From positions 96,001-160,000 of the forward strand of contig CAWEZH010000002.1 in the NCBI GenBank assembly GCA_963813535.1: a stretch of 64,000 nt of DNA, given 5' to 3'. Shown piece after piece: positions 31,095 through 43,945 of the stretch. The position numbers were made by a program, and so were the translations under genes. The first letter of the stretch is position 1, and each line of letters starts with the position of its first letter. The notes below the pieces were generated by a model. That model did no database searches and was not told where the DNA came from. It was given only the letters and a program-made list of their open reading frames with translations. The stretch comes from an uncultured Chloroflexia bacterium. GTDB taxonomy: Bacteria; Chloroflexota; Limnocylindria; Limnocylindrales; CSP1-4.

Positions 31095-32077
31095 CCAGCG
31101 CGGACGATCTGGCACGCAGCGTCCGCGCGTGGCGTTCCACGCTCGACGGCGATCAGCGAGAGCGCTCGTCGTTCGGGTTCGACGACCCGGAGCGCGTCGT
31201 CTGGGCGTTCACGCCGGGCGAGCGTGCGGGCCTGGCGCTCGGTGATATGGCGCCGGAGCAGCGGTCGGCCGCGTCACGCATCGTCGAAGCCGCGATGAGC
31301 GCGCGTGGTGCCCGAGAGGTCGCCGCCGTCATCGCCCTCGAATCGGTCCTTGGCGGGCTGGAACGCGACCAGGGCCGCTCGAACTGGCCGCGGCGCGACC
31401 CAGGGCTGTACTGGTTTGCCGTCTTCGGCGATCCGACAGACCCGGCCACGGCACGGGAGCCATGGGCGTGGCGGATCGGCGGTCACCACGTGGCCGTCCA
31501 GATGACGGTCGCGGACAGCGAGGTCGTCGGCAGCACGCCGTCGTTCCTGGGGGCCAACCCGGCCGTCGTTCCCGGCGGGCCTCGTGCCGGGGAGCGGACG
31601 CTGACGGGCGAGGAGTCGCTTGCCCGGGCGCTGCTGGATGGCCTGTCGCCCGACGCGCGGGCGGTCGCCGTGGTCGACGCCGTGGCACCACCGGAGATCC
31701 TCACGGGCAACAGTGCCCGTGCCGATCCGTCGTCAGTCCCCCGCGGCCTCCGCTATGCCGAGATGGATCCGACCGCCCAGGCGGGGCTGGTGCGCCTGAT
31801 CCGGCACTACCTGGGACGGGCGGCCGACGACGTCGCTGAGTCCGATTGGGAGCGAGCGGTGGCCGATGGCCTCGCGGACACGACGTTCGCCTGGGCCGGG
31901 GCGCTGGAACCCGGGCGCGGGCACTACTACGCGATCCGTGGCCCGCGGCTGCTCATCGAGTACGACAACACGCAGAACGGCGCCAATCACGTCCACGCCG
32001 TGTGGCGCGATCCGGTGAACGATTGGGGTGAGGACCTCCTCGCGGCGCACTATCGCGCGGGTCACGCAGGGGGCTGA
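31091..32077 (+). CDS. DUF3500 domain protein
   Basis: RDP..Y.FAVFG.P, WRIGGHH, PSFLGANP, YYAI.GP.LLIEYDNTQNGANHVHAVWRD..NDWG. Confidence 0.88.
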   Translation: MTSADDLARSVRAWRSTLDGDQRERSSFGFDDPERVVWAFTPGERAGLALGDMAPEQRSAASRIVEAAMSARGAREVAAVIALESVLGGLERDQGRSNWPRRDPGLYWFAVFGDPTDPATAREPWAWRIGGHHVAVQMTVADSEVVGSTPSFLGANPAVVPGGPRAGERTLTGEESLARALLDGLSPDARAVAVVDAVAPPEILTGNSARADPSSVPRGLRYAEMDPTAQAGLVRLIRHYLGRAADDVAESDWERAVADGLADTTFAWAGALEPGRGHYYAIRGPRLLIEYDNTQNGANHVHAVWRDPVNDWGEDLLAAHYRAGHAGG

Positions 32078-32182
32078 CCACCTTGCGCCGTGGCGGCCGG
32101 GCCGTACACTCCGTCGAGCCTGTGTCGCCTGACCGGTGATCGCCGCGTCGGGCGGGCACGAAGCGAGTGAGGGATATCCACC

Positions 32183-32464
32183 ATGATGGCGATCTTCGGA
32201 GCACTCCTGCCCAGGTTCGTGCTCCTCGTCGGCTGGTTCAACGATCCGGGCTACTGGAACACCGTGATCCAATCACAGCTGTTCTTCCTGCTCGGCTTCC
32301 TGTTCCTGCCCTGGACCACCCTGGTCTACGGCTTGGCGGCACCCAACGGCCTCAGCCTGCTCAACATCATCTTCCTGATCTTCGCGCTGTTGATCGACCT
32401 TGCGACCTGGGGCGTCGGCGCCCTCGCGACGCGCAAGCAGGCGTCCTACTACCGCGGCACCTGA
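32183..32464 (+). CDS. small membrane protein
   Basis: Three hydrophobic segments, LGFLFLPWTTL motif, GAGG RBS. Confidence 0.8.
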   Translation: MMAIFGALLPRFVLLVGWFNDPGYWNTVIQSQLFFLLGFLFLPWTTLVYGLAAPNGLSLLNIIFLIFALLIDLATWGVGALATRKQASYYRGT

Positions 32465-32574
32465 CTGCCGCTTCGACGCGAACGAGGTCCTGCCGGGAAC
32501 GAATCGACCCACGCCCGACGACTACCATCTGAGCGCGACGAAACCGCCGCGCCGACCTCGTAGTCCGGTGGGCC

Positions 32575-33135
32575 GTGGACCAGCGAGAACTCGTCGAGCG
32601 AGCGCAGCGAGGCGATCATGACGCCTTCGCGACCCTTGCCGGCCTGTTCGTCGCGCGGCTGGATGCTGCCGCCCGCCTGATCCTCCGCGACCACGATCTC
32701 GCCCGAGACGCGGTCCAGGACGGGTTCATCCGGGCCTGGCGCAGCCTGCCCTCCCTCCGCGATCCGGATCGCTTCGAGGGATGGTTGCGCAGCCTCGTGG
32801 CCCGCTCATGCATCGACATCCTGCGCCGTCGTGGCCGCCGGCCGATCGAGGTCGAACTGATCTCGACGGACGGGCCATCGATCGACGACGTCTCGACCGT
32901 GACCGCGGACCGAGACTTGCTCGACTTGATCCTCCGACGATTGCCGCCCGATCAGCGGGCGGTCGTCGTGCTCCGTTACTACTTCGACCTCGAGGTGCCC
33001 GAGATCGCCAGCACGCTGGGGATCCCGCTCGGCACCGCCAAATCCCGACTCCACCGATCGATGGGCCTGATGCGTTCCGCGCTGGCCGACATCGATCCCG
33101 ACCACGCCCCGGTGCCGAAGGGACAGTTCGCATGA
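32575..33135 (+). CDS. ECF RNA polymerase sigma factor
   Basis: GD..AF, D.VQD.F..AW, F..WL (region 2); LP.DQR.VV.LRY, EIA..LGIP.GT.KSRL.R (region 4). Confidence 0.95.
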   Translation: MDQRELVERAQRGDHDAFATLAGLFVARLDAAARLILRDHDLARDAVQDGFIRAWRSLPSLRDPDRFEGWLRSLVARSCIDILRRRGRRPIEVELISTDGPSIDDVSTVTADRDLLDLILRRLPPDQRAVVVLRYYFDLEVPEIASTLGIPLGTAKSRLHRSMGLMRSALADIDPDHAPVPKGQFA

Positions 33136-34385
33136 CCACGTTCGAGCGCTTCGAGCATGCGATCCCGGAGCTCATGACCGAGCTCGCGCCGGCGCAGGTC
33201 CCCGACTACTTCGATGACATGCTCCGGCAGACCGCGGCGCATCGGCAGCGGCCGGCCTGGAGCTTCCCCGAAAGGTGGCTTCCCATGGACATCGCGGTCC
33301 AGCCGCTCATGTCGCGGCGCTTCCCGTGGCGACCGCTCCTCGTCGCGGGGCTCATCGGCCTCTTGATCGCCGCGGGTCTCGCCGCGTACATCGGGTCGCA
33401 GCAGCGACTGCCGCCCCCATTCGGCCTCGCACGGAACGGTCAGATCCTGTTCAGCACACCGGAAGGCAAGATCGTGTCCGCCGATCCCGACACAGGCGCG
33501 ATAACCGCGCTCATCACAGGGCCAGACCTGGCCTCGAACCCCTGGTTCTCGAATGACGGCACCCGATTCGCGTTCGACCGGCGAACGGCGGGCAGCCCTG
33601 CTGGCTTGTTCGTCGCGAACGCAGATGGTACGAACGTGCGCCAGGTCGCCGATCCCGCTCCGGAGATCTCATGGTTCGATTGGTCGCCGACGGGAGACCG
33701 CTTCGCCCTCTCCCGTGCCGGTGATCCTCCGGGTCAGATCACGATCATGGACCCGTCCGACGGCTCGACGACGACGTTCCAGCTGGGACTCGAGATCGCG
33801 ACAGCCGCGTGGCGGCCGAACAGCGACCAACTCGTCGTTACCACGAACATGCCTGGCGGCTCCGCCGCGCAGGGCTTCTACCTCGTGGGATCGGATGGAG
33901 CTGGTCTCAAGCCGATCGTCGTCGGTCCCACGATCATCAACACGCCGACCGTCTCGCCCGATGGCGCGAAGCTGGCGTACGCCACATGGGAGGCTGGGGC
34001 AGAGGGGCGCATCCATTTCGCCGACATCGACTCGGGCGCCATCAGCGAAGTCGATTTCGCCCCTGGATTCGAGTACACCGACCTGAGCCCGGTGTTCTCA
34101 CCCGACGGGAAGACATTCGTCGTGCAGCGGTATGCGATCGACGGCTATCGGCTGACCGTGCTGAGCGTCGACGGGCAAGCCCGAGCGGTCCCTATGGGAT
34201 TGGCGCACCCGGACATGACTGACGGTGCGGCCGTGCTCTTCTCGCCCGATGGGACGAAGGTCCTGGCGACGTACAAGAACGACGGGACGACCTGGCTCCT
34301 GGATGTGGTGACCGGCGGTGGCGACCAGATGACCTGGTCCGTCCCGATGACGACAGACGCGACGTGGCAGCGTCTCGCACCGTGA
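33132..34385 (+). CDS. putative anti-sigma factor with TM helix and TolB/PD40-like beta-propeller
   Basis: ATGA-coupled to the ECF gene; short cytoplasmic N-terminus, TM, repeated (W/F)SPDG units. Confidence 0.8.
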   Translation: MTTFERFEHAIPELMTELAPAQVPDYFDDMLRQTAAHRQRPAWSFPERWLPMDIAVQPLMSRRFPWRPLLVAGLIGLLIAAGLAAYIGSQQRLPPPFGLARNGQILFSTPEGKIVSADPDTGAITALITGPDLASNPWFSNDGTRFAFDRRTAGSPAGLFVANADGTNVRQVADPAPEISWFDWSPTGDRFALSRAGDPPGQITIMDPSDGSTTTFQLGLEIATAAWRPNSDQLVVTTNMPGGSAAQGFYLVGSDGAGLKPIVVGPTIINTPTVSPDGAKLAYATWEAGAEGRIHFADIDSGAISEVDFAPGFEYTDLSPVFSPDGKTFVVQRYAIDGYRLTVLSVDGQARAVPMGLAHPDMTDGAAVLFSPDGTKVLATYKNDGTTWLLDVVTGGGDQMTWSVPMTTDATWQRLAP

Positions 34386-34401
34386 TGCGGAGCACCGTCG
34401 G

Positions 34402-34490
34402 TTAGTCGCTCGCGCTCGATTCTGCGGCGTCGATGGCCGCGGCCAAGTCGGCCGCGGCCACGGCGCGCGGCTCCTTGCCCTTCGGCCAGT
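34402..34490 (-). pseudogene. detached alternative 3' end of the ferredoxin-NADP reductase gene
   Basis: Translates WPKGKEPRAVAAADLAAAIDAAESSASD*, versus WPKGKEPRGVAGAADLAAETDAAILNADQ* in the intact gene; 34464-34490 matches 36283-36309 at 26/27 nt. Confidence 0.9.
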
Positions 34491-34587
34491 CGCGACGGCA
34501 TGCCGCCGGTAGCCCGCAGCCGCACGCGGCTGAAGCCCCGGCGCGAGGCTGTGGGCGCGGGCCGATCTCGATCGAGAAATGATGAGA

Positions 34588-34641
34588 TTGACAGCGGCGC
34601 CAAAGCTACCTAGGATGCCGCTACATCGGATACAGATGTAG
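34588..34641 (+). promoter_or_regulatory. sigma70 promoter and PadR operator
   Basis: TTGACA-N17-TAGGAT (34588-34616); palindrome CTACATC-N7-GATGTAG (34621-34641). Confidence 0.8.
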
Positions 34642-34651
34642 AGGTGGGCGG

Positions 34652-35005
34652 ATGAAGCAGCTGAAGTCGTTTGGCAACCAGCTTGTGAAAGGCACGACGC
34701 CGATGCTCGTACTTTCCGTGATCGGGGAAGGCGAGCTCTACGGCTACGAGATCGCTCAACGCATCCGGGAGGAGAGCGGGGGCGGCTTGGCGCCGTCCGA
34801 GGGGTCGCTCTACCCGACGCTGCATAGGCTCGAGGCGGACGGAGCCCTCGAGGCGGTCTGGCGCGAGAGCGACCGAGGGCCTCGTCGGCGCTACTACAAG
34901 GTGACGGATCACGGGCGGGGCCTGCTCGCCTCCAGCCAGGACGAGTGGTCGACGTTCGCGCGGATGGTCGAGCGCGTCGCCCTTCGAGGTGATCGGAATG
35001 GCTGA
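34652..35005 (+). CDS. PadR family transcriptional regulator
   Basis: YGYEI, EGSLYPTLHRLE..G, GPRRRYY..T..G. Confidence 0.96.
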   Translation: MKQLKSFGNQLVKGTTPMLVLSVIGEGELYGYEIAQRIREESGGGLAPSEGSLYPTLHRLEADGALEAVWRESDRGPRRRYYKVTDHGRGLLASSQDEWSTFARMVERVALRGDRNG

Positions 35006-36197
35006 CTTTGATCCGACCCGCTGGACGTCGGACCGAGCCGGCTATCTCGCACGCGTCGCGGCGTCCTTGCGCCTCCCGGAAAGCGACGCCCGCGACGTCA
35101 TCGAGGAGCTGGAGGGCCACATCGCAGATTCCACCGCGGCGCTGATGGCGGACGGTCTCTCGCAAGAACAGGCCGAGCGGAATACCCTCGCCCGCCTCGG
35201 CGCACCCGACGTCCTTGCCGGGGATCTCCGGCGCGCTCGCCAGACGTCGCGTCGCATGATCGCGGCCGTCGGCGGAGGCGTGTGGGCCGCCACCCGCAGC
35301 GGGACGTTCGGTCTCCTGGTCGGGGCCGCGACAGCGCTCCCGGCCATGCTCCTCATTGCGGCGATCGTCGGGTTGTTGTTGCCGAGCGTGACGTTCCTGT
35401 TCGAGCCGGTCGGCATGGCAACGGGGATTGCGTGGGCATGGGCGATCGCCGCCTTTCTCGCTGCTGGCGCTGCGACACGCCGCATCGCCGTCACGGCTCG
35501 CCGTCCGATCGCCGATGTCCGCACCCCGGCCGCGCTGCTCGCCGCCCTCGTGATCGGCGCAGCCGTGCTGCTGATCCCGAGCCAGGCCCTCGACGAGCTG
35601 GCCGTCATCGTGTTGCTTGCGATCCCGCTCGGTGGCGTGTTGGGCGCGCTGCTCGCCACCGAACGCGGGCGACCCAGTCGCTGGCTGGCTCCGCTGGCGA
35701 TCCTCGTCATGGTGTTCGGCTTCGTTGCCCTGCCGTTGGCGATCCTCTGGGCGCCGCCAACGGTCACGTGGGGTGCGATCGTGCCGTCCGATCACCCAGC
35801 GTTCGAGGCCGAACCCGCCTTCGAGAGTCCGTTCGCGGATGGGATGGGGATCATCACCCAGAATCAGGACGGTCGATACGAACTGGAGACGACCGTCGGG
35901 CCGTCGATCGCGCAGTGGCGAAATTTGCGACTCGAGGTGTGGGCCTGCGCGCTCCCTTGCAGCGAACCTGATGCCGAGCGGACTGTGCTCATCGGCGATG
36001 CTCCAGCAAGCATCGCCAACGACCGGCTAACGGCTGCCGTGGTCATGAACCACTACCGCTACTCGGGTCCGATCGTCGCGCTCCTGCTGGGGACGGACGA
36101 AGGCGGCGTCCAGCACACGCTGTTCGGTCCCGACATCGGCAAAGCCGCATTCAACGGCCGGGTGATCGACTGGCTGTCGGCGCCAGTACCGTCCTAG
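34998..36197 (+). CDS. membrane protein with N-terminal HAAS/permease-prefix-type domain
   Basis: YL..V...L..D.IEELE.HI.....A...LG.P motif, about five TM segments, extracytoplasmic C-terminus. Confidence 0.8.
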   Translation: MADFDPTRWTSDRAGYLARVAASLRLPESDARDVIEELEGHIADSTAALMADGLSQEQAERNTLARLGAPDVLAGDLRRARQTSRRMIAAVGGGVWAATRSGTFGLLVGAATALPAMLLIAAIVGLLLPSVTFLFEPVGMATGIAWAWAIAAFLAAGAATRRIAVTARRPIADVRTPAALLAALVIGAAVLLIPSQALDELAVIVLLAIPLGGVLGALLATERGRPSRWLAPLAILVMVFGFVALPLAILWAPPTVTWGAIVPSDHPAFEAEPAFESPFADGMGIITQNQDGRYELETTVGPSIAQWRNLRLEVWACALPCSEPDAERTVLIGDAPASIANDRLTAAVVMNHYRYSGPIVALLLGTDEGGVQHTLFGPDIGKAAFNGRVIDWLSAPVPS

Positions 36198-36217
36198 CAG
36201 CGCGACTAACCGGTTTT

Positions 36218-37093
36218 CTACTGATCCGCGTTCAAGATCGCCGCGTCGGTCTCCGCCGCAAGGTCCGCCGCGCCAGCCACGCCGCGCGGTTCCTTGCCCT
36301 TCGGCCAGTACAGCTCCTTCTTGACCGACGCCTCGGGGAGTCCGAGGTCAAGGAGGGTCTGCTCGGCAGCGATGATCATGTCGGGGTTGCCACAGAGGTA
36401 GGCGATCGTGTCGTCCGGCTTGAGTCCGAGTTGCTCGAACACCGGGCCGACCACCGTCTCGGCGCGGCCGGTCCGGCCCTCCCAGGTGGCATTGGACGGG
36501 TCGCCGGGGCGGGAGACGGTGGGTACGAACGTCACCGGGTACTCGCCGCGCGTCTGCCAGCGCTCGAGGACGTCGCGATAGCCGAGGTCGCGCTCGTACG
36601 AGACGCCGTTGATGAACACCGCCCGACGGAGGTCGCCCGCGGCCATCGTCTCGCGCATCATCGACACGAATGGGGCATTGCCCGTGCCCGATGAGATGAA
36701 CAGGTGGACCCGATCGTCGCCGGGCTCGAGCAGGAACTTGCCCTTCGGCCCGATCATCCGCATCCGGTGGCCGACGGGCAGGTCCCACAGCACCGGCGTG
36801 AACGTGCCGCCCTGGACGAGCCGCAGGTAGAACTCGTAGCCGGTCGAGCCGGCCTCGCGCGGGGGTGACGCGACCGAGTACGGCCGCTGGACGATGCGCC
36901 CGTCGATGAACACGCCGATCGTCATGTACTGCCCGGGCTCGAAGGGCGTCGGTTCGCCGTCGAACTTGACCCAGAAGTAGCCCAGGCTCTCGTGCTGGTC
37001 GACGCGCTGGATCAGGGTCGCGTTGTAGCGCTCATCGTCGGTCGCGATGACGCCGCCGGGCTCGGCGGCCGCGGCGGCGGCGAGGTCGGTCAT
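36218..37093 (-). CDS. fpr: ferredoxin--NADP(+) reductase (bacterial Fpr type)
   Basis: FEPGQY, RPYSVAS, GTFT, GPKGKF, SGTGNAPF, YLCGNPDMI, ELYW. Confidence 0.88.
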   Translation of the reverse strand: MTDLAAAAAAEPGGVIATDDERYNATLIQRVDQHESLGYFWVKFDGEPTPFEPGQYMTIGVFIDGRIVQRPYSVASPPREAGSTGYEFYLRLVQGGTFTPVLWDLPVGHRMRMIGPKGKFLLEPGDDRVHLFISSGTGNAPFVSMMRETMAAGDLRRAVFINGVSYERDLGYRDVLERWQTRGEYPVTFVPTVSRPGDPSNATWEGRTGRAETVVGPVFEQLGLKPDDTIAYLCGNPDMIIAAEQTLLDLGLPEASVKKELYWPKGKEPRGVAGAADLAAETDAAILNADQ

Positions 37094-37179
37094 GTGTGGA
37101 CGCATCTCCGGTGCGGTTCCGGAGATGGTACCCGGCGACGCCACTCGACCAGCGAGGGTCGCCGCCGGGCGATGTGGAG

Positions 37180-37764
37180 CTAGGCGGGATCCCCCTGCCC
37201 TCGACAGCTCACCTTCGGGTTCCAGTCGTTGAACAGACCGCGGGGATTGCCCTTCCAGACCCAAGCATGGATCTCGTAGAAGTCCGGAAGCCCGTATCGG
37301 TTGCCCGCCGGAACGAGCGTCAGCCGCCGCCCGAACAGGCGAGGCGCCCTCGACCCGTTGGCCTTGTGCCAGGCATCCTTTAGGACCACGTACTCGACGG
37401 CCACGAGCTGGTAGCCGCCATCGGTGCGGGGCTCGTAGACGAGCACTTCCGGCCGCAGCTTGTCCAGCGCGGGATCCTCGACCAGCGCGCCCTTCACGAA
37501 GTGCTGGCCCATCCCGCCCGTGCCGGTCTTGTCTGTGCAGAGGTAGAACTTGTCGTAGCCCGCCGCCATCGCGATATCCAGGTTGTGGAACGCATCGGTC
37601 GCCGCTCGCACATCCGCGAGCTGACTCGTCGAGCCCTGCGGGCCGCTGCCTGCCACGACGACCGCGGAACCGACGATGGCCATCACCGCGATCGCGCCGA
37701 TGACGGCGGTGCGGGCTGACGTGACTCGCCGGCGCGCGACCCGGGAAAACGCATCTGGTGTCAT
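37180..37764 (-). CDS. secreted hypothetical protein
   Basis: Signal peptide; GGMGQHF, PEVLVYEP, AVEY, HAWVW..NP.G.F..WNP.V.C motifs. Confidence 0.8.
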   Translation of the reverse strand: MTPDAFSRVARRRVTSARTAVIGAIAVMAIVGSAVVVAGSGPQGSTSQLADVRAATDAFHNLDIAMAAGYDKFYLCTDKTGTGGMGQHFVKGALVEDPALDKLRPEVLVYEPRTDGGYQLVAVEYVVLKDAWHKANGSRAPRLFGRRLTLVPAGNRYGLPDFYEIHAWVWKGNPRGLFNDWNPKVSCRGQGDPA

Positions 37765-37773
37765 GCGATCACC

Positions 37774-38022
37774 TCACACCTCGACCGAGACTTCGTAGAC
37801 CTCGGGGGTCGGATGCCCGGCCCGCTCGTGGATCCGCATCACGGCCTCCCTCGATGGTCCGGTCGCCAGGCAGAAGACCTTGCCGGCCTCCGGATCCATC
37901 CAGGCACGCTCGAAATGGACGCTTTCATCGCGCTCGATCGCCAGGTCGCGGTCATGCGCTTCGCGCAGCTGGTCGGCCGTCACGCCGAAGAACCCCGAAT
38001 GCACGTCCATGAACTTCGTCAT
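37774..38022 (-). CDS. DUF4242 / SCO4226-like protein
   Basis: FMDVH, EAH..D, W.D...GKVFCL..GP...AV..IH..AGH; AGGAGG RBS. Confidence 0.88.
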   Translation of the reverse strand: MTKFMDVHSGFFGVTADQLREAHDRDLAIERDESVHFERAWMDPEAGKVFCLATGPSREAVMRIHERAGHPTPEVYEVSVEV

Positions 38023-38095
38023 CGACGCCTCCTGTCTCCTGTCCCGGCGAGGCGCCGGGTCCGTGGGCGAGACGGTCGCGCCGAAAACGGGCATC

Positions 38096-38119
38096 GTCAT
38101 CGGTCGAACGACCGATGAC
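38096..38119. promoter_or_regulatory. perfect inverted repeat, candidate operator of the STAND-LuxR regulator
   Basis: GTCATCGGTCG-AA-CGACCGATGAC between divergent genes. Confidence 0.6.
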
Positions 38120-38151
38120 CTGCGACGGACCCGGCCTACACTGCGAGCACG

Positions 38152-41037
38152 ATGGGGACGCTAGCCTCGCTCCAGTGCCCGATCCTGGTCGGTCGAGACG
38201 ATCTGCTGCGGATGGCGGATCAGGCCATCGAGGCCGTCGCCGGAGGCGATGGTCGGACCCTGCTGATCGCCGGTGAGGCGGGCATCGGCAAGACGCGCCT
38301 GGTCGATGCGGTGATCCGTCGCGCGAGCAGCGCCGGCTTCGCGTATGCGGGCGGTGACCTCGCGCCGCAGGATGCCGACGTCCCGTTGGCCGTGCTCGGC
38401 GATCTGTTCCGCTCGATGCGGCACGCAGCCCCCTGGGCGGACCTCGGCGAAGAGCTCCTCGCTCGCTGCGCCCAGGCGGCGCGTGCCGGCGACACCTATA
38501 GCCGTGCGCTGGTCGTCGACATCGTCGACCGCATCCGCCCCTACCTCGATCGGCCGACCCTCCTCAAGTTCGAAGACCTCCAATGGGCGGACGATATGAG
38601 CCTCGAGGCGATCGCCGAGCTGGCCCGGTTCAGTGCCGAGCTGCCACTCCTCGTTCTCGGCGTCTATCGACGGGACGAGACACCGCCCGGCGCACCTCTC
38701 CGGGCGTGGCGATCCCGGCTGCTGACCCAGCGACGAGCGGAGGAGTTCGTCCTCCAGCGCTTGTCAGCCGACGACACCGGCACGATGACGACGTTGCTGC
38801 TCGGCTCGGGCATGCCCGCCCCTCGCGAGGTCGTCCAGGCGGTCTACCAACGGTCGGATGGACTGCCGCTCCATGTCGAGGAGCTGATCGGCGGGGCTCG
38901 GGCGCGGGGCCAGGTGGACGCGGAGGTCATCCACACCACGGACGTCCCGAACACGATCGAGGACGCCGTCCGGGCGCGAGCCGCGGAGCGATCGGCGGAA
39001 GCCCAGGCGGTCGCACGCGCCGGGGCGGTGATCGGGCGGTGCTTCGTCCCTGAGGTGCTTGCCGACGTGATGGACCGACCCGCGGGCGAACTGGAGGATG
39101 CCCTGCAGGAGCTCGTCGACCATGGATTCCTGTTCGAGTTCGGGACGGTCGACGCCGGCTACTACGACTTTCGCCATCAGCTGTTGCGAGAGGCGCTCTA
39201 CCGCGCCACGCCGGAGCGCGATCGACGGCAGTACCACGCTCGAGCGGCGGCGTTCGGGGCGACCCTGGAGGGCGCATCCGAGGTCCACGCTTCCCTGCAC
39301 TACGAGCGTGCGGGGCTCTCCGCGGAGGCATACAGGGCGGCGCGAGTCGGTGGCGAGGAGGCTGCTCGCCTATCTGCCCACCGCGAGGCCTTCGAATTGC
39401 TCCGGCGCGCGGTCCGCAACATGCCCGACGGGACGCCGGATCTGGAACGTGCTGAGCTTCTCGAGCGCTACGCGTCCGAGGCCGCTGCCATCGAGGAGAA
39501 CGAGACATCGGAAGCGATGACGTGGGCCGCGCGGGCGGCATATCAAGGGGCGGGCCGACCCGAACTGGCCGCGCTGATGCTGTCCAGCGTCCACACGTTG
39601 TGGCGACGGATGGGTCGACCGCTCAGCGACCGTCGGGCGCTGATCCAGCAGGCCGAGGCCGAGCTTTCGGGCGTGCCGGACGGCCTCGAACTGGAGGAGG
39701 TCCGCCGCGAGCTGACATACGACCGACTCGTGATCGAGGTCGACGCGAACGAGATCGGTGCGGCGCGCCGGACCGGCAAGCCGTTGCTGTCCGCCTTCCA
39801 GGCGGCCGGTGAGGTGGGGTCGATGGCTGCCGTTGCCGTCCGCCTGGCGATGGTCGACATCCTGGCTGGTGACCCCGATGCCGGGCTTGCGACGATGGTT
39901 CGACTCGCAGAGGAGGCGCGCGAGAACCGGGCCGAGGAGACCGGGGTCACGGCGTTCCGGGACACCGCGGTGATGGCGACACGCGTGATGGACTATGCGC
40001 GAGCCGACGAGAGCCTCTCCGAGGGGCTCGTGTACGCGGACTCGATCCAGCAGTCCCACTGCGCCCACGTCATGTCGGCTTTGACCGCCGAGATCGACTG
40101 GGCCGCCGGGCGATGGGACGCCGCGGTGCCGGCGGGCGAACAGGCGATCGCCGACCGCGGCTGCGCACGAGCCCCGAACATGGCCCGCTGGGCGGTCGGG
40201 TACGTGGCCTTCGGGCGCGGAGAGCTCGATCACGCTCGCGGACTCCTCCATGAGGCCCTGGGCTTCGGCGATCAGAGCGAGATGATCGAGTGGCGCCTCC
40301 CGCCGGCCTGGGGGCTTGCCGAGACCGCGCTGCTCGACCACGACGCAAGCGACGCCATCGACCGCTGCGAGGCGGCGCTGACGCTGTGCATCGCGACGGG
40401 AGAGCGGGCGCTGCTCGCACCCTTCGTCGTCACCGGCGTGCGCGCGTACCTGAGCGCGGGCCGACCGGGCGAGGCGGAGCGCTGGCTGGCCCGCTGCGCT
40501 GCGCATCTCGCGCCGACGCCGGCGTTCGGGCGGGCCGCTCTCGACCACGGGGCGGGCTTGGTGGCGCTCGCGTCCGGGTCGACCGGTACGGCACGCACGT
40601 CGCTCGAGGCAGCGGCAGCCGGCTGGGACCGTCACGGTCGACTGTGGGAATCACGATGGGCGAGCCTCGACCTGGCGAATGCCCATATCCGCTCGAACCG
40701 GTTCGCGGCGGCAGTGGCGATCGCAGCGGACGTCCGCGAGACCGCCGACCGACTGTCCTGCCCGAGCCTGCTCGCCGAAGCTGACCGACTTCTCCGCCAG
40801 GCGCGGGGCCGCGTCGCCGTCGATGAGCCGTGGCGCCCACTCACGGCGCGCGAGTTCGAAGTCGCCCGGCTGATCGGCGAAGGGCTGACCAACGCCGAGA
40901 TCGCCGATTCGCTCGGGATCGCGCCGAAGACGGCAAGCTCCCACGTCGAGCACATCCTGGCCAAGCTCGGTGCGTCCCGCCGCACGGAGATCGCAACCTG
41001 GGCGAGCAACGTCGACAGGAGCGCTGCCGCGCACTGA
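38152..41037 (+). CDS. large STAND/AAA ATPase-LuxR transcriptional regulator
   Basis: LVGR, GEAGIGKT Walker A, FEDLQWAD Walker B, GLPL, FRHQLLRE, C-terminal LTAREFEVA..G.TN.EIA HTH. Confidence 0.95.
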   Translation: MGTLASLQCPILVGRDDLLRMADQAIEAVAGGDGRTLLIAGEAGIGKTRLVDAVIRRASSAGFAYAGGDLAPQDADVPLAVLGDLFRSMRHAAPWADLGEELLARCAQAARAGDTYSRALVVDIVDRIRPYLDRPTLLKFEDLQWADDMSLEAIAELARFSAELPLLVLGVYRRDETPPGAPLRAWRSRLLTQRRAEEFVLQRLSADDTGTMTTLLLGSGMPAPREVVQAVYQRSDGLPLHVEELIGGARARGQVDAEVIHTTDVPNTIEDAVRARAAERSAEAQAVARAGAVIGRCFVPEVLADVMDRPAGELEDALQELVDHGFLFEFGTVDAGYYDFRHQLLREALYRATPERDRRQYHARAAAFGATLEGASEVHASLHYERAGLSAEAYRAARVGGEEAARLSAHREAFELLRRAVRNMPDGTPDLERAELLERYASEAAAIEENETSEAMTWAARAAYQGAGRPELAALMLSSVHTLWRRMGRPLSDRRALIQQAEAELSGVPDGLELEEVRRELTYDRLVIEVDANEIGAARRTGKPLLSAFQAAGEVGSMAAVAVRLAMVDILAGDPDAGLATMVRLAEEARENRAEETGVTAFRDTAVMATRVMDYARADESLSEGLVYADSIQQSHCAHVMSALTAEIDWAAGRWDAAVPAGEQAIADRGCARAPNMARWAVGYVAFGRGELDHARGLLHEALGFGDQSEMIEWRLPPAWGLAETALLDHDASDAIDRCEAALTLCIATGERALLAPFVVTGVRAYLSAGRPGEAERWLARCAAHLAPTPAFGRAALDHGAGLVALASGSTGTARTSLEAAAAGWDRHGRLWESRWASLDLANAHIRSNRFAAAVAIAADVRETADRLSCPSLLAEADRLLRQARGRVAVDEPWRPLTAREFEVARLIGEGLTNAEIADSLGIAPKTASSHVEHILAKLGASRRTEIATWASNVDRSAAAH

Positions 41038-41152: not shown

Positions 41153-43945
41153 ATGACCACGACCACGCCCTCTCCGGCTACGGCCGACCGCTCCCACACG
41201 GCGGCCAAGCGCTACATCTATGCCTGGGGTGAGGGCACGGCCGAGGGCAACGCGGGCATGCGCGACCTCCTCGGCGGGAAGGGCGCAGGCCTGGCCGAGA
41301 TGACCATCGCCGGTCTCCCGACCCCGCCCGGTTTCACGATCACGACCGAAGCCTGCAACGACTACTTCGCCAACGGGGAGCGTCTGCCCGACGGCCTGTG
41401 GGACGACGTGCTCGAGGCGGTCAAGGAGGTCGAGCGGCGGACCGGCAAGGGCTTCGGCGACCCCTCGAACCCACTCCTCGTGAGTGTTCGCTCGGGCGCC
41501 AAGTTCTCGATGCCCGGGATGATGGACACGGTCCTGAACCTCGGCTTGAACGAGCAGACGCTGCAGGGCCTCATCGGGCTCACGAACAACGAGCGGTTCG
41601 GCTGGGACGCGTACCGCCGGTTCATCCAGATGTTCGGTCGCATCGTGATGGAGGTCAGCGGCGAGCGCTTCGACCATGCCCTCGACGAAGCCAAGGCGAG
41701 TCACGGTGCGAAGCAGGACACCGACCTCGACGCCGCGGCCCTCAAGGCCCTCGTCGGCGAGTTCAAGTCGATCGTCAAGGCCGACACGGGTCGGGACTTC
41801 CCGGACGACCCCGACGAGCAGCTCGACCTCGCGATCAAGGCGGTGTTCGCGAGCTGGTTCGGCAAGCGCGCCCGCGACTACCGCAAGAACCAGGCCATCC
41901 CCGACGACCTCGGCACCGCCGTCAACGTCGTGACGATGGTGTTCGGGAACATGGGCGACGACTCCGGCACGGGCGTCGCGTTCACGCGCGACCCGAACAC
42001 CGGCGAGAAGGTGCTCTTCGGCGAGTACCTGACCAACGCCCAGGGGGAGGATGTCGTGGCCGGCATCCGGACCGCGCCGAAGATCGCGCAGATGCAGACC
42101 GACATGCCCGAGGTCTACGCCGAGTTCCAGCGCATCGGTCAGCAACTCGAGGCGCACTACCGGGACGTGCAGGACCTCGAGTTCACCATCGAGCGCGGCC
42201 GCCTGTACATGCTCCAGACACGGTCCGCGAAGCGGACGGCGGCCGCGGCTGTGCGCATCGCCGCGGACATGGTCGAGGACGGCACGATCACCAAGGAGGA
42301 AGCGATCGCCCGGATCGAGCCCGGCCACGTCGACCAGCTGCTGCGCGACCAGTTCGACCAGGCCGGGCTGCAGGCCGCGACCCGCATCGCCAAGGGTCTC
42401 AATGCCTCACCGGGCGCGGCGGTCGGTCGCGCCGTGTTCAGTGCCGACACCGCCGTGGAGTGGGTCGAGAAGGGCGAGAAGGTCATCCTCGTCCGTATCG
42501 AGACGTCGCCCGACGACTTCCACGGCATGGCCGTCGCCCAGGGCATCCTCACCGCCCGTGGTGGAGCCACCAGCCACGCCGCCGTGGTGGCACGCCAGAT
42601 CGGCAAGCCGTGCGTCGCCGGTTGCGCCGAGCTCGTCATCGACTACGCCATGAAGACCGCCCGCAGCTCGGACAGCGGCGTCTCGTTCAAGGAAGGCGAC
42701 TCGATCAGCCTCGACGGCGCGACGGGGACGGTCTACGAGGGTGCGATCCCCACGGTCAGTGCACGGTTCGAGGATCAGCCCGAGCTACAGAAGATCCTCG
42801 GCTGGGCCGACGAGATCCGGCGCATGGGCGTCTGGACCAACGCCGACAAGCCCGAGGAGGCGGCCCAGGCGCGCGGCTACGGGGCCGAGGGCATCGGCCT
42901 CTGTCGGACCGAGCACATGTTCCGCGAGGGGGAGCGGCTCGACATCGTCCGGGGCGCGATCCTGGTCGCCAGCCAGGCCACCCGGGCGAAGGCCAAGCTG
43001 ACCGCCGGCGACTCGCTCGATGCGGACGAGCGCGAGGCGATCGCCACGTTCGACGCGGCCATGGCCAAGCTCGAAGTGCTCCAGCAAGGCGACTTCGAGG
43101 GCATCTTCAAGGCGATGGACGGCCTGCCGGTCGTCATCCGCCTGATCGACCCACCCCTCCATGAGTTCCTGCCCAACCTCGAGGACCAGCTCGTCAAGGT
43201 CACCAGAGCGGAGTCGACCGGCGGCGCGAGCCAGGCGGACAAGGAGCTCCTCGCGACCATCAGATCGTTGCACGAGCAGAACCCGATGCTCGGGTTGCGC
43301 GGGGTGCGCCTGGGCCTGACGATCCCGGACTTCGTGAAGGTCCAGACACGGGCGATCCTCAATGCCCAGATCGCGGTCAAGCGCGCCGGTGGCAACCCGA
43401 TCGCCAAGATCATGATCCCGCTGGTCGGTCACCCGAATGAGCTGCGGCGCACCAAGGAGCTGCTCGAAGCCGAGGTCGAAGCGGTCGAAGCCGCCGCGGG
43501 CGGCGTCGATGTCGACTACAAGTTCGGCACGATGATCGAGGTCCCACGTGGTGCGCTCGTCGCGGACGAGATCGCCAAGGATGCCGCGTTCTTCAGCTTC
43601 GGCACGAACGACCTGACCCAGATGACGTTCGGCTACAGTCGGGACGACGCCGAGGGCGGCTTCCTGCTCAAGTACGTCGAAGACGGCATCCTGCCGGTCA
43701 ACCCGTTCCAGACGCTCGACGACGCGGTCGCCGGCCTGATGCAGGTCGCCGTGGACAAGGGTCGGGCGACGCGCCCGGACCTCGAGATCGGCATCTGCGG
43801 GGAGCATGGCGGCGACCCGGCCTCGATCTTCAAGTGCGAGAAGCTCGGCCTCGACTACGTCTCCTGCTCACCGTTCCGTGTCCCCGTCGCGAGGCTTGCC
43901 GCCGCCCAGGCCGCCCTCACCACGGCCGCCGAACGCGACAAATAG
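41153..43945 (+). CDS. ppdK: pyruvate, phosphate dikinase
   Basis: LLGGKGA, SVRSGA..SMPGMMDT, GGATSHAAVVAR, GIGLCRTEHM, SFGTNDLTQ, GICGEHGG. Confidence 0.99.
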   Translation: MTTTTPSPATADRSHTAAKRYIYAWGEGTAEGNAGMRDLLGGKGAGLAEMTIAGLPTPPGFTITTEACNDYFANGERLPDGLWDDVLEAVKEVERRTGKGFGDPSNPLLVSVRSGAKFSMPGMMDTVLNLGLNEQTLQGLIGLTNNERFGWDAYRRFIQMFGRIVMEVSGERFDHALDEAKASHGAKQDTDLDAAALKALVGEFKSIVKADTGRDFPDDPDEQLDLAIKAVFASWFGKRARDYRKNQAIPDDLGTAVNVVTMVFGNMGDDSGTGVAFTRDPNTGEKVLFGEYLTNAQGEDVVAGIRTAPKIAQMQTDMPEVYAEFQRIGQQLEAHYRDVQDLEFTIERGRLYMLQTRSAKRTAAAAVRIAADMVEDGTITKEEAIARIEPGHVDQLLRDQFDQAGLQAATRIAKGLNASPGAAVGRAVFSADTAVEWVEKGEKVILVRIETSPDDFHGMAVAQGILTARGGATSHAAVVARQIGKPCVAGCAELVIDYAMKTARSSDSGVSFKEGDSISLDGATGTVYEGAIPTVSARFEDQPELQKILGWADEIRRMGVWTNADKPEEAAQARGYGAEGIGLCRTEHMFREGERLDIVRGAILVASQATRAKAKLTAGDSLDADEREAIATFDAAMAKLEVLQQGDFEGIFKAMDGLPVVIRLIDPPLHEFLPNLEDQLVKVTRAESTGGASQADKELLATIRSLHEQNPMLGLRGVRLGLTIPDFVKVQTRAILNAQIAVKRAGGNPIAKIMIPLVGHPNELRRTKELLEAEVEAVEAAAGGVDVDYKFGTMIEVPRGALVADEIAKDAAFFSFGTNDLTQMTFGYSRDDAEGGFLLKYVEDGILPVNPFQTLDDAVAGLMQVAVDKGRATRPDLEIGICGEHGGDPASIFKCEKLGLDYVSCSPFRVPVARLAAAQAALTTAAERDK

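Follow-up and report, generated by a model that had tools for sequence, protein, structure and literature searches.

How does a small operon with no mobility function come to lie between two versions of the same gene end? We address this question at a locus within the window, by which we mean the whole 64,000-nucleotide stretch of genome G000 that was analysed. A preliminary description of this DNA had proposed that a mini-island is lodged between two versions of the 3′ end of an fpr gene. We confirmed the arrangement: a PadR/HAAS operon with its own promoter separates the tail that is still attached to fpr (tail B) from an orphan tail (tail A) that ends beside a convergent neighbour gene (Table 1). 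The cassette encodes no mobility function.

Table 1 Features of the fpr locus in G000, with positions numbered along the window.
Feature	Position	Strand	Details
ECF sigma gene	32575–33135		Upstream of the PD40 gene; Pfam Sigma70_r2/r4/ECF
PD40 beta-propeller protein (left flank)	33135–34385	plus	Pfam PD40; converges on the orphan tail
Orphan fpr tail (tail A)	34402–34490	minus	Reads WPKGKEPRAVAAADLAAAIDAAESSASD, then stop
Direct repeat copy 1 (core)	34457–34490		Final 19 nt same as copy 2
Cargo-side junction and regulatory region	34491–34651	plus	Promoter scan and direct reading
Cargo gene 1: PadR-family transcriptional regulator	34652–35005	plus	117 aa; Pfam PadR, E 3.1e-25
Cargo gene 2: protein with N-terminal HAAS domain	34989–36197	plus	402 aa; Pfam HAAS, E 1.4e-11
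fpr (FNR-family flavin reductase)	36218–37093	minus	291 aa; Pfam FAD_binding_6 and NAD_binding_1
Attached tail of fpr (tail B)	36218–36309	minus	92 nt, from 2 nt before the Trp codon (36305–36307) to the stop; holds repeat copy 2
Direct repeat copy 2 (core)	36276–36309		Inside tail B

The cassette and its two fpr tails

The product of the interrupted locus ends in ...ELYWPKGKEPRGVAGAADLAAETDAAILNADQ before its stop codon. The name fpr is only approximate because, although both Pfam domains are present, the predicted protein scores under the cut-off of every NCBIfam equivalog (62 bits against a cut-off of 390 for NF008178); alignment to solved bacterial ferredoxin–NADP reductases (E 1e-19 to 1e-11) extends to about residue 253. 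The 3.28-Mb genome holds one full-length copy plus the tail fragment, and the reading frame upstream of the orphan's Trp codon has no likeness to fpr, indicating that the orphan does not derive from a full-length paralogue, an origin that the preliminary description had named as a challenge to its proposal. Elsewhere, the closest DNA match to tail A is the functional tail of genome G033 (92% over 78 nt), whereas its identity to tail B of its own genome is 81%. The two repeat copies match at 32 of 34 nt, share a 19-nt identical run (TCCTTGCCCTTCGGCCAGT; 26/27 when extended) and are spaced 1,819 nt apart. They form the sole long, high-identity direct repeat within 33500–37500, and the genome contains exactly two occurrences of the core pattern. 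The block around the Trp codon (...GAGCTGTAC TGGCCSAAGGGCAAGGARCCNCG...) is near-invariant and is the best-conserved stretch of fpr, the rest of which shows ~70–80% identity between species.

The suggestion that the attached tail was itself imported fared less clearly. Beyond +21, tail B makes G000 the odd one out against its sister genomes at 5 of 6 informative sites, compared with 16 of 47 in the body, but tail B also carries an extra Ala codon in common with those sisters, G024 and G034. No imported tract was found in the G000 fpr body relative to these two genomes; a dip in identity at −250 to −100, considered as a G000 import, is seen in the compared pairs rather than in G000 alone.

Ahead of the cargo genes, a scan identified a sigma-70-like promoter, TTGACA-17-TAGGAT, at 34588–34616 (one found versus a mean of 0.1 in shuffles), and direct reading identified a palindrome, CTACATC-N7-GATGTAG, at 34621–34641, after the −10 hexamer. 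The palindrome is probably the operator of PadR, which, once the cassette was in place, would presumably repress its own promoter through it. The regulator scores 88.4 bits against PF03551, over the cut-off, and also matches NCBIfam PadR models below their cut-offs; the second protein, whose gene is adjacent with a 17-nt overlap, is over the cut-offs of both PF22564 (45 bits) and the NCBIfam model ‘permease prefix domain 1’. HAAS homologues in the genus reach at most 40% identity, occur in 14 of 130 genomes and lie beside fpr in none of them. A collection of 5.8 billion proteins yielded three near HAAS relatives, at 96, 85 and 86% identity, and searches of genome_contigs and metagenome_contigs with the HAAS protein returned no relative that could mark a donor locus. 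Cargo GC (0.65–0.725) is the same as that of the flanks, which suggests a related organism as the donor.

Empty sites and recurrent scars downstream of fpr

The sequence from 34491 to ~36217 is a real, recent, lineage-specific insertion. Neither a PadR nor a HAAS gene lies beside fpr in any of 29 small loci or 20 larger loci from relatives, and a homologue of the beta-propeller gene directly adjoins a complete fpr, in convergent orientation, in G036, G021 and G035 (3 of 20 loci) and on contig 7 of G135. These unoccupied sites bear out the earlier proposal of an insertion at the WPKGKE codons. The orphan tail is stranded roughly where the complete fpr ends in these relatives, with its stop codon 16 nt from that of the neighbour gene, whose product is probably the anti-sigma partner of the ECF sigma factor encoded upstream. 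Against the closest relative, G024, homology covers 32000–34389 (92.3%) and 36264–37169 (92.2%), restarting within tail B; between these blocks G024 has a different 1-kb insert, with an HTH_31 gene, and no orphan tail, and the break falls mid-tail on one side and 4 nt past the neighbour's stop on the other. Gene content from glyS to the fpr 3′ end differs in nearly all 20 loci, which points to a hot spot of gene turnover immediately past fpr in the genus.

Alternative cargo behind the fpr core, whose existence the preliminary description had proposed checking, was found in four further genomes, bringing orphaned tails to 5 of the 88 fpr loci of the genus. They lie beyond EamA, PAS and metallo-beta-lactamase-fold genes in G007 (2.4 kb), LacI, sugar ABC transporter and alpha-amylase-family genes in G022 (8 kb), a DSPc phosphatase gene in G020 (1.5 kb) and 4.8 kb of cargo in G136. 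The cargo genes of these four scars are unrelated, the neighbour genes beside the orphans differ, and with the G000 cassette there are at least five such scars of independent origin. Counted from the Trp codon, the orphan starts fall at −2, −1 and −3 in three of the five cases; the G020 orphan starts at +20 and has no core, and the start in G136 is ambiguous and abuts TGGCC. None contains any fpr body sequence, and the G022 orphan is an intact 87-nt long-type tail. In an order-wide sample of 401 genomes, two copies of the core were present in 0 of the 54 core-bearing genomes outside the genus. Among 61 genome_contigs loci in which the core does not follow a Leu codon, only 2 continue as a tail, and these match the G007 and G022 orphans; the corresponding metagenome scan gave 1 of 6 loci. 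A second nhmmer match in G061 (E 0.045), considered as a further orphan, was judged a chance match, with a poor alignment and a position beyond glyS.

Comparisons of junctions between species favour horizontal movement of cargo together with an fpr end. G007 and G022 have in common 50 nt after the stop, found in 2 of 131 genomes, and a 1.3-kb module that is 97% identical, against 76% for their fpr bodies. The metagenome contig L147 matches G022 at 94–95% over the distal cargo and junction and at 88.6% over the orphan, with nothing in common past the orphan's stop. The jump in identity between G007 and G022 at the Trp codon, taken to prove that tail and cargo move together, is weakened by the fact that tails are generally more conserved than bodies (tail minus body identity is at least 0.12 in 36 of 630 pairs). 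Alignment scores for shared arms at the cargo-side junctions of G000, G007 and G022 were at shuffle level. The original home of the G022 distal cargo was sought as a test for microhomology, and its best protein homologues, at ≤75%, were too distant; where the PAS/metallo-beta-lactamase module lies at other sites, the direct repeats flanking it do not consist of gene ends, and they were set aside.

Mobility enzymes and possible routes of entry

The window contains no PF00589 or PF00239 match, in agreement with the earlier statement that it encodes no recombinase. Mobility enzymes were likewise absent from 34 cargo-region proteins at 15 loci and from 93 family representatives, drawn from 423 predicted proteins outside the backbone, at 60 further loci; across these 75 loci of relatives, no integrase or conjugation gene was found downstream of fpr. 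The genome-wide search that the preliminary description had called for added no core copy to the two already described. It identified only two tyrosine recombinases, both Xer-like and far from the fpr cassette, which are over the NF001399 ‘tyrosine recombinase’ cut-off, have XerD and XerC as best equivalogs and are matched by similarly spaced counterparts in G024 and G007. The census of the whole genome found no resolvase-type serine recombinase, no DDE_Tnp_1 and no Y1_Tnp, and one broken rve gene. There was no attC-like element or integron integrase, and a scan of viral_contigs for a phage or plasmid attP gave 0 matches to the core pattern. On inspection, neither clear dyad symmetry nor resemblance to dif consensus sequences is evident in the core; an idea based on the terminus and dif was abandoned, as cumulative GC skew is too flat for placing the terminus. 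Four soil or rhizosphere runs, covering only small shares as low-depth contigs, contained neither the joint from 34490 to 36310 that skips the cassette nor the circular junction that had been proposed as a target for read searches; near-identical pieces of the strain occur in two runs, X3 and X1. With no integrase in the cargo, in the 75 loci or in G000 beyond the two Xer-like genes, no core in viral contigs, no shared arms and 2 of 5 orphan boundaries that differ, the integrative-element mechanism of att site and integrase advanced in the preliminary description is unsupported.

The explanation that we put foremost, with our confidence evenly balanced for and against it, is that the fpr 3′ flank is a turnover hot spot at which incoming DNA with its own fpr 3′ end recombines at the Trp-codon block and is joined illegitimately at its far end. 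In the donor, the cargo would lie downstream of fpr, so that incoming DNA would arrive with a conserved fpr 3′ end already attached. Host homologous recombination would then pair the incoming end with the resident fpr through the near-invariant block, and the far end of the fragment would be joined before the resident tail by non-homologous or microhomology joining. The route could be homology-facilitated illegitimate recombination for a linear fragment or Campbell-type insertion for a circularised one; either way the enzyme would end in one tail version, with the second stranded past the cargo beside the convergent neighbour gene. The breakpoints sit uneasily with this account: three of five orphans start no more than 3 nt from where the Trp codon begins and a fourth (G136) starts at a TGGCC, a clustering that random illegitimate joining does not predict. 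Moreover, no donor arrangement was found for the PadR/HAAS pair (cargo beside a complete fpr, without an orphan), no empty-site allele or circular form of the PadR/HAAS cassette was seen, and the comparison of G000 with G024 and G034 offers no imported tract in the fpr body by which to place the crossover.

Clustered breakpoints would fit site-specific integration in trans. In this possible, if somewhat unlikely, alternative, the Trp-codon block would be an attachment site, the recombinase would be supplied by a transient plasmid, conjugative element, phage or the host (Xer), and, in line with the preliminary description, the cassettes would be att-flanked units unable to move by themselves (CIME-like or cassette-like), each bringing a replacement tail with it. 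Three species share near-identical boundaries next to three unrelated junction sequences, with a possible fourth abutting TGGCC; the longest identical run of the G000 repeat sits at the Trp-codon edge; the G007/G022 and G022/L147 comparisons locate both ends of a shared unit at, or close to, the two copies of the tail; and beyond +21 tail B sets G000 apart from the sister genomes at a larger share of informative sites than the body does. Yet no cargo or fpr neighbourhood among the 75 loci supplies a recombinase, G000 has only its two Xer-like tyrosine recombinases and no resolvase-type enzyme, the core shows no clear dyad or dif likeness, is absent from viral contigs and has no conserved arms, the G020 orphan begins at +20 without the core, and the general conservation of tails makes the G007/G022 identity jump weak evidence. 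We think it doubtful that the first ~20 nt of the tail (TGGCCSAAGGGCAAGGARCC) are a docking site for integrase-independent, sequence-directed cassette exchange, whereby any module behind fpr could leave with a tail copy and insert into fpr in another species at an identical position, a host enzyme (Xer or an unknown nuclease or recombinase) reading the TGGCC edge. If true, this would represent integron-like or pdif-like gene sharing that exploits a housekeeping gene's end, among soil bacteria nearly without classical mobile elements. Very unlikely, in our judgement, is an ancient local duplication or rearrangement with later differential loss, with a genus ancestor that had two tails and genes between them and with vertical descent, cargo replacement and deletions thereafter. 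Direct repeats would permit repeated deletions and the flank is highly rearranged in all lineages, but non-coding relics dating back to the genus ancestor should be more decayed than the orphans are (intact over 87 nt in G022; 92% identical to the functional tail of a distant species in G000), the closest relative lacks one, and the few that exist are scattered in distribution and adjoin different neighbour genes. A false join or false duplication in metagenome assembly has only the slightest probability. G000 and its relatives appear to be metagenome-assembled, several relatives have frameshifts typical of long-read errors, and by a 31-letter rule no record in the four soil or rhizosphere runs bridges either junction; however, in an independent soil run (X1), a short-read contig of ~93% identity runs from the orphan core and 15 tail-like letters across 34490/34491 into PadR, and another record covers the end of the neighbour gene and the distal orphan. 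The independent contig L147 has the G022-type junction, and scars of the same form occur in five separate assemblies.

If the reading of homologous pairing at the Trp-codon block and illegitimate joining at the far end holds, the locus would be a natural case of bacteria with almost no mobile-element enzymes gaining small, ready-to-run modules. Conserved sequence at a housekeeping gene's end would be the landing pad, a fixed hot spot at which a swap of the enzyme tail is tolerated. Breakpoint clustering at one codon in several species makes a sequence-specific host activity a testable idea. For annotation, orphan gene ends by hot spots may be insertion scars, not decayed paralogues.

Comparison with known systems

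Integrative elements that enter the 3′ end of a protein-coding gene and supply a replacement end include SCCmec at orfX/rlmH and ICESt1/3 at fda. The fpr cassette resembles such elements in that the last codons of a conserved gene are hit, the gene is left intact and a displaced copy of its end lies at the far side. It also has the flanking direct repeats expected of an ICE, IME, prophage or island, here a 34-nt repeat within ~90-nt homologous tails. Those elements have their own recombinase and fixed crossover sites, whereas the fpr cassette carries only PadR and HAAS genes, encodes no recombinase, and has repeats that belong to diverged homologues (81%). Islands integrated in yicC (PMC8978831) are a further example of this class.

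CIMEs, by definition, retain attL and attR and have lost the genes for integration and transfer (PMC5704250). The fpr cassette shares this combination: it is small, has no integrase, lies between direct repeats containing the target gene's 3′ end, and could receive a further element at either repeat. In contrast to a CIME, it bears no sign of descent from an ICE or IME, its cargo is an ordinary regulator/membrane-protein operon, no ICE or IME uses the fpr site in the 75 relatives' loci, and cassette boundaries vary.

IMEX elements, pdif modules and integron cassettes are small, integrase-free modules with short repeated sites that rely on an enzyme encoded elsewhere. Candidates for host XerC and XerD are present as the two Xer-like ORFs of G000, as for IMEX elements and pdif modules, but the fpr core has no dif-like architecture by inspection and its repeats are the tail of a coding gene; integron cassettes differ further in that fpr has neither an adjacent integron integrase nor an attC-like element. 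Homology-facilitated illegitimate recombination, in which one homologous anchor is combined with one microhomology join, has been described in laboratory work on Acinetobacter and pneumococcus and is not known as a recurrent natural scar at one gene. Although it gives no reason to expect three or four of the five far-end joins at one TGGCC, this process requires host functions only, accounts for ordinary cargo, variable far-end breakpoints and absent arms, and fits G000 as a genome poor in mobile-element enzymes.

The two fpr 3′ ends and the genes between them

The source genome (G000), a 3.28-Mb assembly in 3 contigs that is 92.9% complete, holds one full-length fpr and an orphan fragment of its 3′ end, and the core, a conserved block at the Trp codon of the fpr tail, occurs in it exactly twice. 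The name fpr is approximate, every NCBIfam equivalog scoring below its cut-off. The fpr product ends in ELYWPKGKEPRGVAGAADLAAETDAAILNADQ followed by the stop codon, and the orphan (34402-34490, minus strand) translates as WPKGKEPRAVAAADLAAAIDAAESSASD with a stop of its own. The DNA copies at 34457-34490 and 36276-36309 agree at 32 of 34 positions, their Trp-codon end being an unbroken match of 19 bases, and no other comparable direct repeat lies within 33500-37500. The translations and this repeat bear out the two fpr 3′ ends of the preliminary description; the orphan is not the remnant of a full-length paralogue, since its frame upstream of the Trp codon bears no likeness to fpr.

The cargo is a PadR and HAAS gene pair and nothing else, with a GC content that matches that of its flanks. 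Homologues of the HAAS protein in the genus are at most 40% identical, occur in 14 of 130 genomes and in no case adjoin fpr. Contig pieces of similar depth from a soil sequencing run (X1) match the HAAS gene (35416-36202) at 98-99.5% identity, the orphan and PadR-upstream part (34104-34771) at only 93-94% and the fpr body (36369-36806) at about 90%. Some of the cargo could have been exchanged recently, or the sample could contain several strains.

Features of the cassette in the window, cargo at the other orphan-bearing loci, and an intergenic repeat family
Feature	Position or span	Strand or setting	Description
fpr	36218-37093	minus	291-aa product; FAD_binding_6 and NAD_binding_1 domains
Promoter-like TTGACA-17-TAGGAT	34588-34616	between tail copies	promoter scan
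Palindrome CTACATC-N7-GATGTAG	34621-34641	between tail copies	direct reading of sequence
PadR gene, then overlapping 402-aa HAAS-domain gene		after promoter and palindrome	domain matches
G007 cargo	2.4 kb	between fpr and orphan	EamA, PAS and metallo-beta-lactamase-fold genes; orphan decayed
G022 cargo	8 kb		PAS/metallo-beta-lactamase pair as in G007, LacI regulator, sugar ABC transporter, alpha-amylase-family gene
G020 cargo	1.5 kb	between fpr and orphan	DSPc phosphatase gene; partial orphan
G136 cargo	4.8 kb		includes cNMP-binding protein gene; partial orphan
Repeat family, about 90 nt	L077 609-4137; L078 2546-4635	intergenic	

Orphan tails, empty sites and other cargo in the genus

A pattern scan found the core in 86 of 131 genus genomes, and a second copy on the same contig and strand only in G000 and its relatives G007 and G022; none of the 54 core-bearing genomes outside the genus has two copies. 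Such a search detects only orphans that retain the core. A tail profile, run over 28 loci and the window (433 kb) and then over 60 further loci (652 kb), added two partial orphans, that of G020 (E 4.5e-9) and that of G136 (E 0.021; 26 of 27 positions identical to the distal tail), bringing orphan tails to 5 of 88 fpr loci; a weak G061 match was dismissed as chance. A scan of all species genomes gave no further orphans, and two public records match those of G007 and G022. Relative to the Trp codon, the orphan boundaries fall at -2 (G000), -1 (G007), -3 (G022) and +20 nt (G020); that of G136 is either the Trp codon, if the orphan has lost an internal stretch, or about +45, and in either case directly precedes TGGCCG. 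No orphan contains fpr body sequence.

The cassette is an insertion. The reductase gene is present in 33 of 36 same-genus genomes drawn, in a backbone that runs from glyS through variable genes to a convergent fpr and further genes, and neither PadR nor HAAS lies beside fpr in 29 small or 20 larger loci of relatives. In G036, G021 and G035 (3 of 20 loci) and on contig 7 of G135, the PD40 beta-propeller gene, neighbour of the orphan in G000, converges directly on a complete fpr, which is the empty site that an insertion predicts. The preliminary description had suggested looking for such sites and for other cargo behind the same 19-bp core; other cargo between fpr and an orphan tail turned up in G007, G022, G020 and G136. 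The G022 orphan is intact and abuts the beta-propeller gene, and the partial orphan of G136 lies 31 nt from it. Against the closest relative, G024 (fpr protein 93% identical), homology covers 32000-34389 and 36264-37169 at 92%; the insert of G024 is another one, 1 kb long and bearing an HTH_31 gene, and homologues of this gene occur downstream of fpr in 4 other genomes.

On the other side of fpr, three genes at 37180-41037 (a 194-aa protein of unknown family, an SCO4226-like protein and a 961-aa LuxR-type regulator) are absent from G024 (locus L032), where the 930-aa protein of window 41153-43942 comes directly after fpr; both fpr flanks are thus unstable. At 32575-34385, an ECF sigma factor gene lies directly before the PD40 beta-propeller gene, as in a sigma/anti-sigma pair, which the two resemble; in most relatives identity is only 38-63% over the propeller part, against 79-98% for the sigma factor. 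Three genomes have two fpr loci on separate contigs, each with backbone neighbours (G135, L053 and L054; G125, L055 and L056; G092, L058 and L059, one of them cut by a contig end), reflecting either mixed bins or real duplications.

Cargo moves from one lineage to another along with the fpr end. The fpr bodies of G007 and G022 are 76% identical (583/765), yet the two genomes share the first 50 nt that follow the stop codon, a stretch present in no other genome of the 131, as well as a PAS/metallo-beta-lactamase module of 1.3 kb (97% identity). Close homologues of its metallo-beta-lactamase (90-98% protein identity) lie away from fpr in 13 other genomes, and all 7 of these that were fetched carry the whole module, mostly in different contexts. 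A metagenome contig (L147) matches G022 at 94-95% over distal cargo and junction and at 88.6% (78/88) over the orphan, with no similarity past the orphan's stop. The identity jump at the Trp codon is no proof that the tail travelled, because long-type tails are generally more conserved than fpr bodies.

The module comprises a 131-aa PAS protein, a Lactamase_B_2 protein and the region upstream of them; its 96-98% identity across 3 species (L044 6296-7611; L052 1765-3089; L072 5698-7022) and its varied contexts suggest a discrete, recently spread unit. In 2 genomes it is bracketed by the tabulated repeats (up to 4 copies in 4 kb). Long-type tails are 85-95% identical in DNA across species, against 70-80% for fpr bodies (for example, locus L036 8502-8588 and window 36218-36309), and hold a perfect palindrome, TGGCCGCGGCCA, with the TGGCC of the Trp-Pro codons repeated in its first half; these features may point to a constraint acting on the DNA or RNA. 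The attached tail of G022 (L049/L052 1391-1483) has 2 extra bases relative to the long type and reads WPKGKEPRGAGRRPTWPP and on to a stop, through either sequencing error or a tolerated frameshift.

Origin of the cassette

G000 is very poor in mobile-element enzymes. Its only tyrosine recombinases are two Xer-like ones, whose counterparts in G024 and G007 show corresponding spacing; genome-wide, it has no resolvase-type recombinase, DDE_Tnp_1 or Y1_Tnp, and its one rve fragment has an internal stop. The reported absence of a recombinase from the window extends, for the tyrosine and resolvase types and those Xer-like genes apart, to the whole genome. No integrase or transposase is found among 34 proteins downstream of fpr at 15 loci of relatives or among 93 family representatives of 423 non-backbone predicted proteins from 60 loci, the viral contig collection contains no copy of the core, and the cargo-side junctions of G000, G007 and G022 are mutually unrelated.

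We favour host recombination, with about even confidence. A fragment from a related donor with cargo behind its fpr, linear or after circularisation, would pair with the resident fpr where the sequence around the Trp codon is nearly invariant, and illegitimate joining would attach its far end ahead of the resident tail. The cargo is ordinary, mobility enzymes and shared arms are lacking, breakpoints vary, and almost all species have this flank rearranged; all of this agrees with the reading, which leaves the clustering of 3, perhaps 4, of 5 breakpoints at one TGGCC unexplained. That clustering would instead fit a sequence-specific activity acting in trans, which we consider a rather unlikely but serious contender. 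The good preservation of the orphans and their scatter over the genus make ancient duplication with differential loss improbable; the same pattern, with junctions on independent short-read contigs, makes an assembly artefact more improbable still, although no short-read contig record strictly bridges a junction (31-letter rule).

The attached tail had been described as imported, and the evidence points both ways. A quick tree places G000 with G024 (support 99) and G034 (84), and the extra Ala codon (GVAGAAD) common to the attached tails of all three suggests inheritance. The orphan lacks this codon, as does the common long type to which it belongs, and best matches the tail of the distant G033 (92%). 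In favour of import, at 5 of 6 informative sites beyond +21 it is the attached tail that stands apart (in the body, G000 does so at only 16 of 47), and the orphan sits beside the neighbouring gene much as a native tail would. Hybrid tails from a crossover inside the 90-nt homology would reconcile both lines of evidence.

The likely mechanism is closest to homology-facilitated illegitimate recombination, and what most merits pursuit is the clustering of breakpoints, which it does not explain. The mini-island proposed for this locus stands as an insertion with att-like repeats, and not as an island with the cognate recombinase or element that defines CIMEs and islands that target a protein-coding gene and replace its 3′ end. 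In form it resembles both, CIMEs being att-like repeats without integration genes (PMC5704250).
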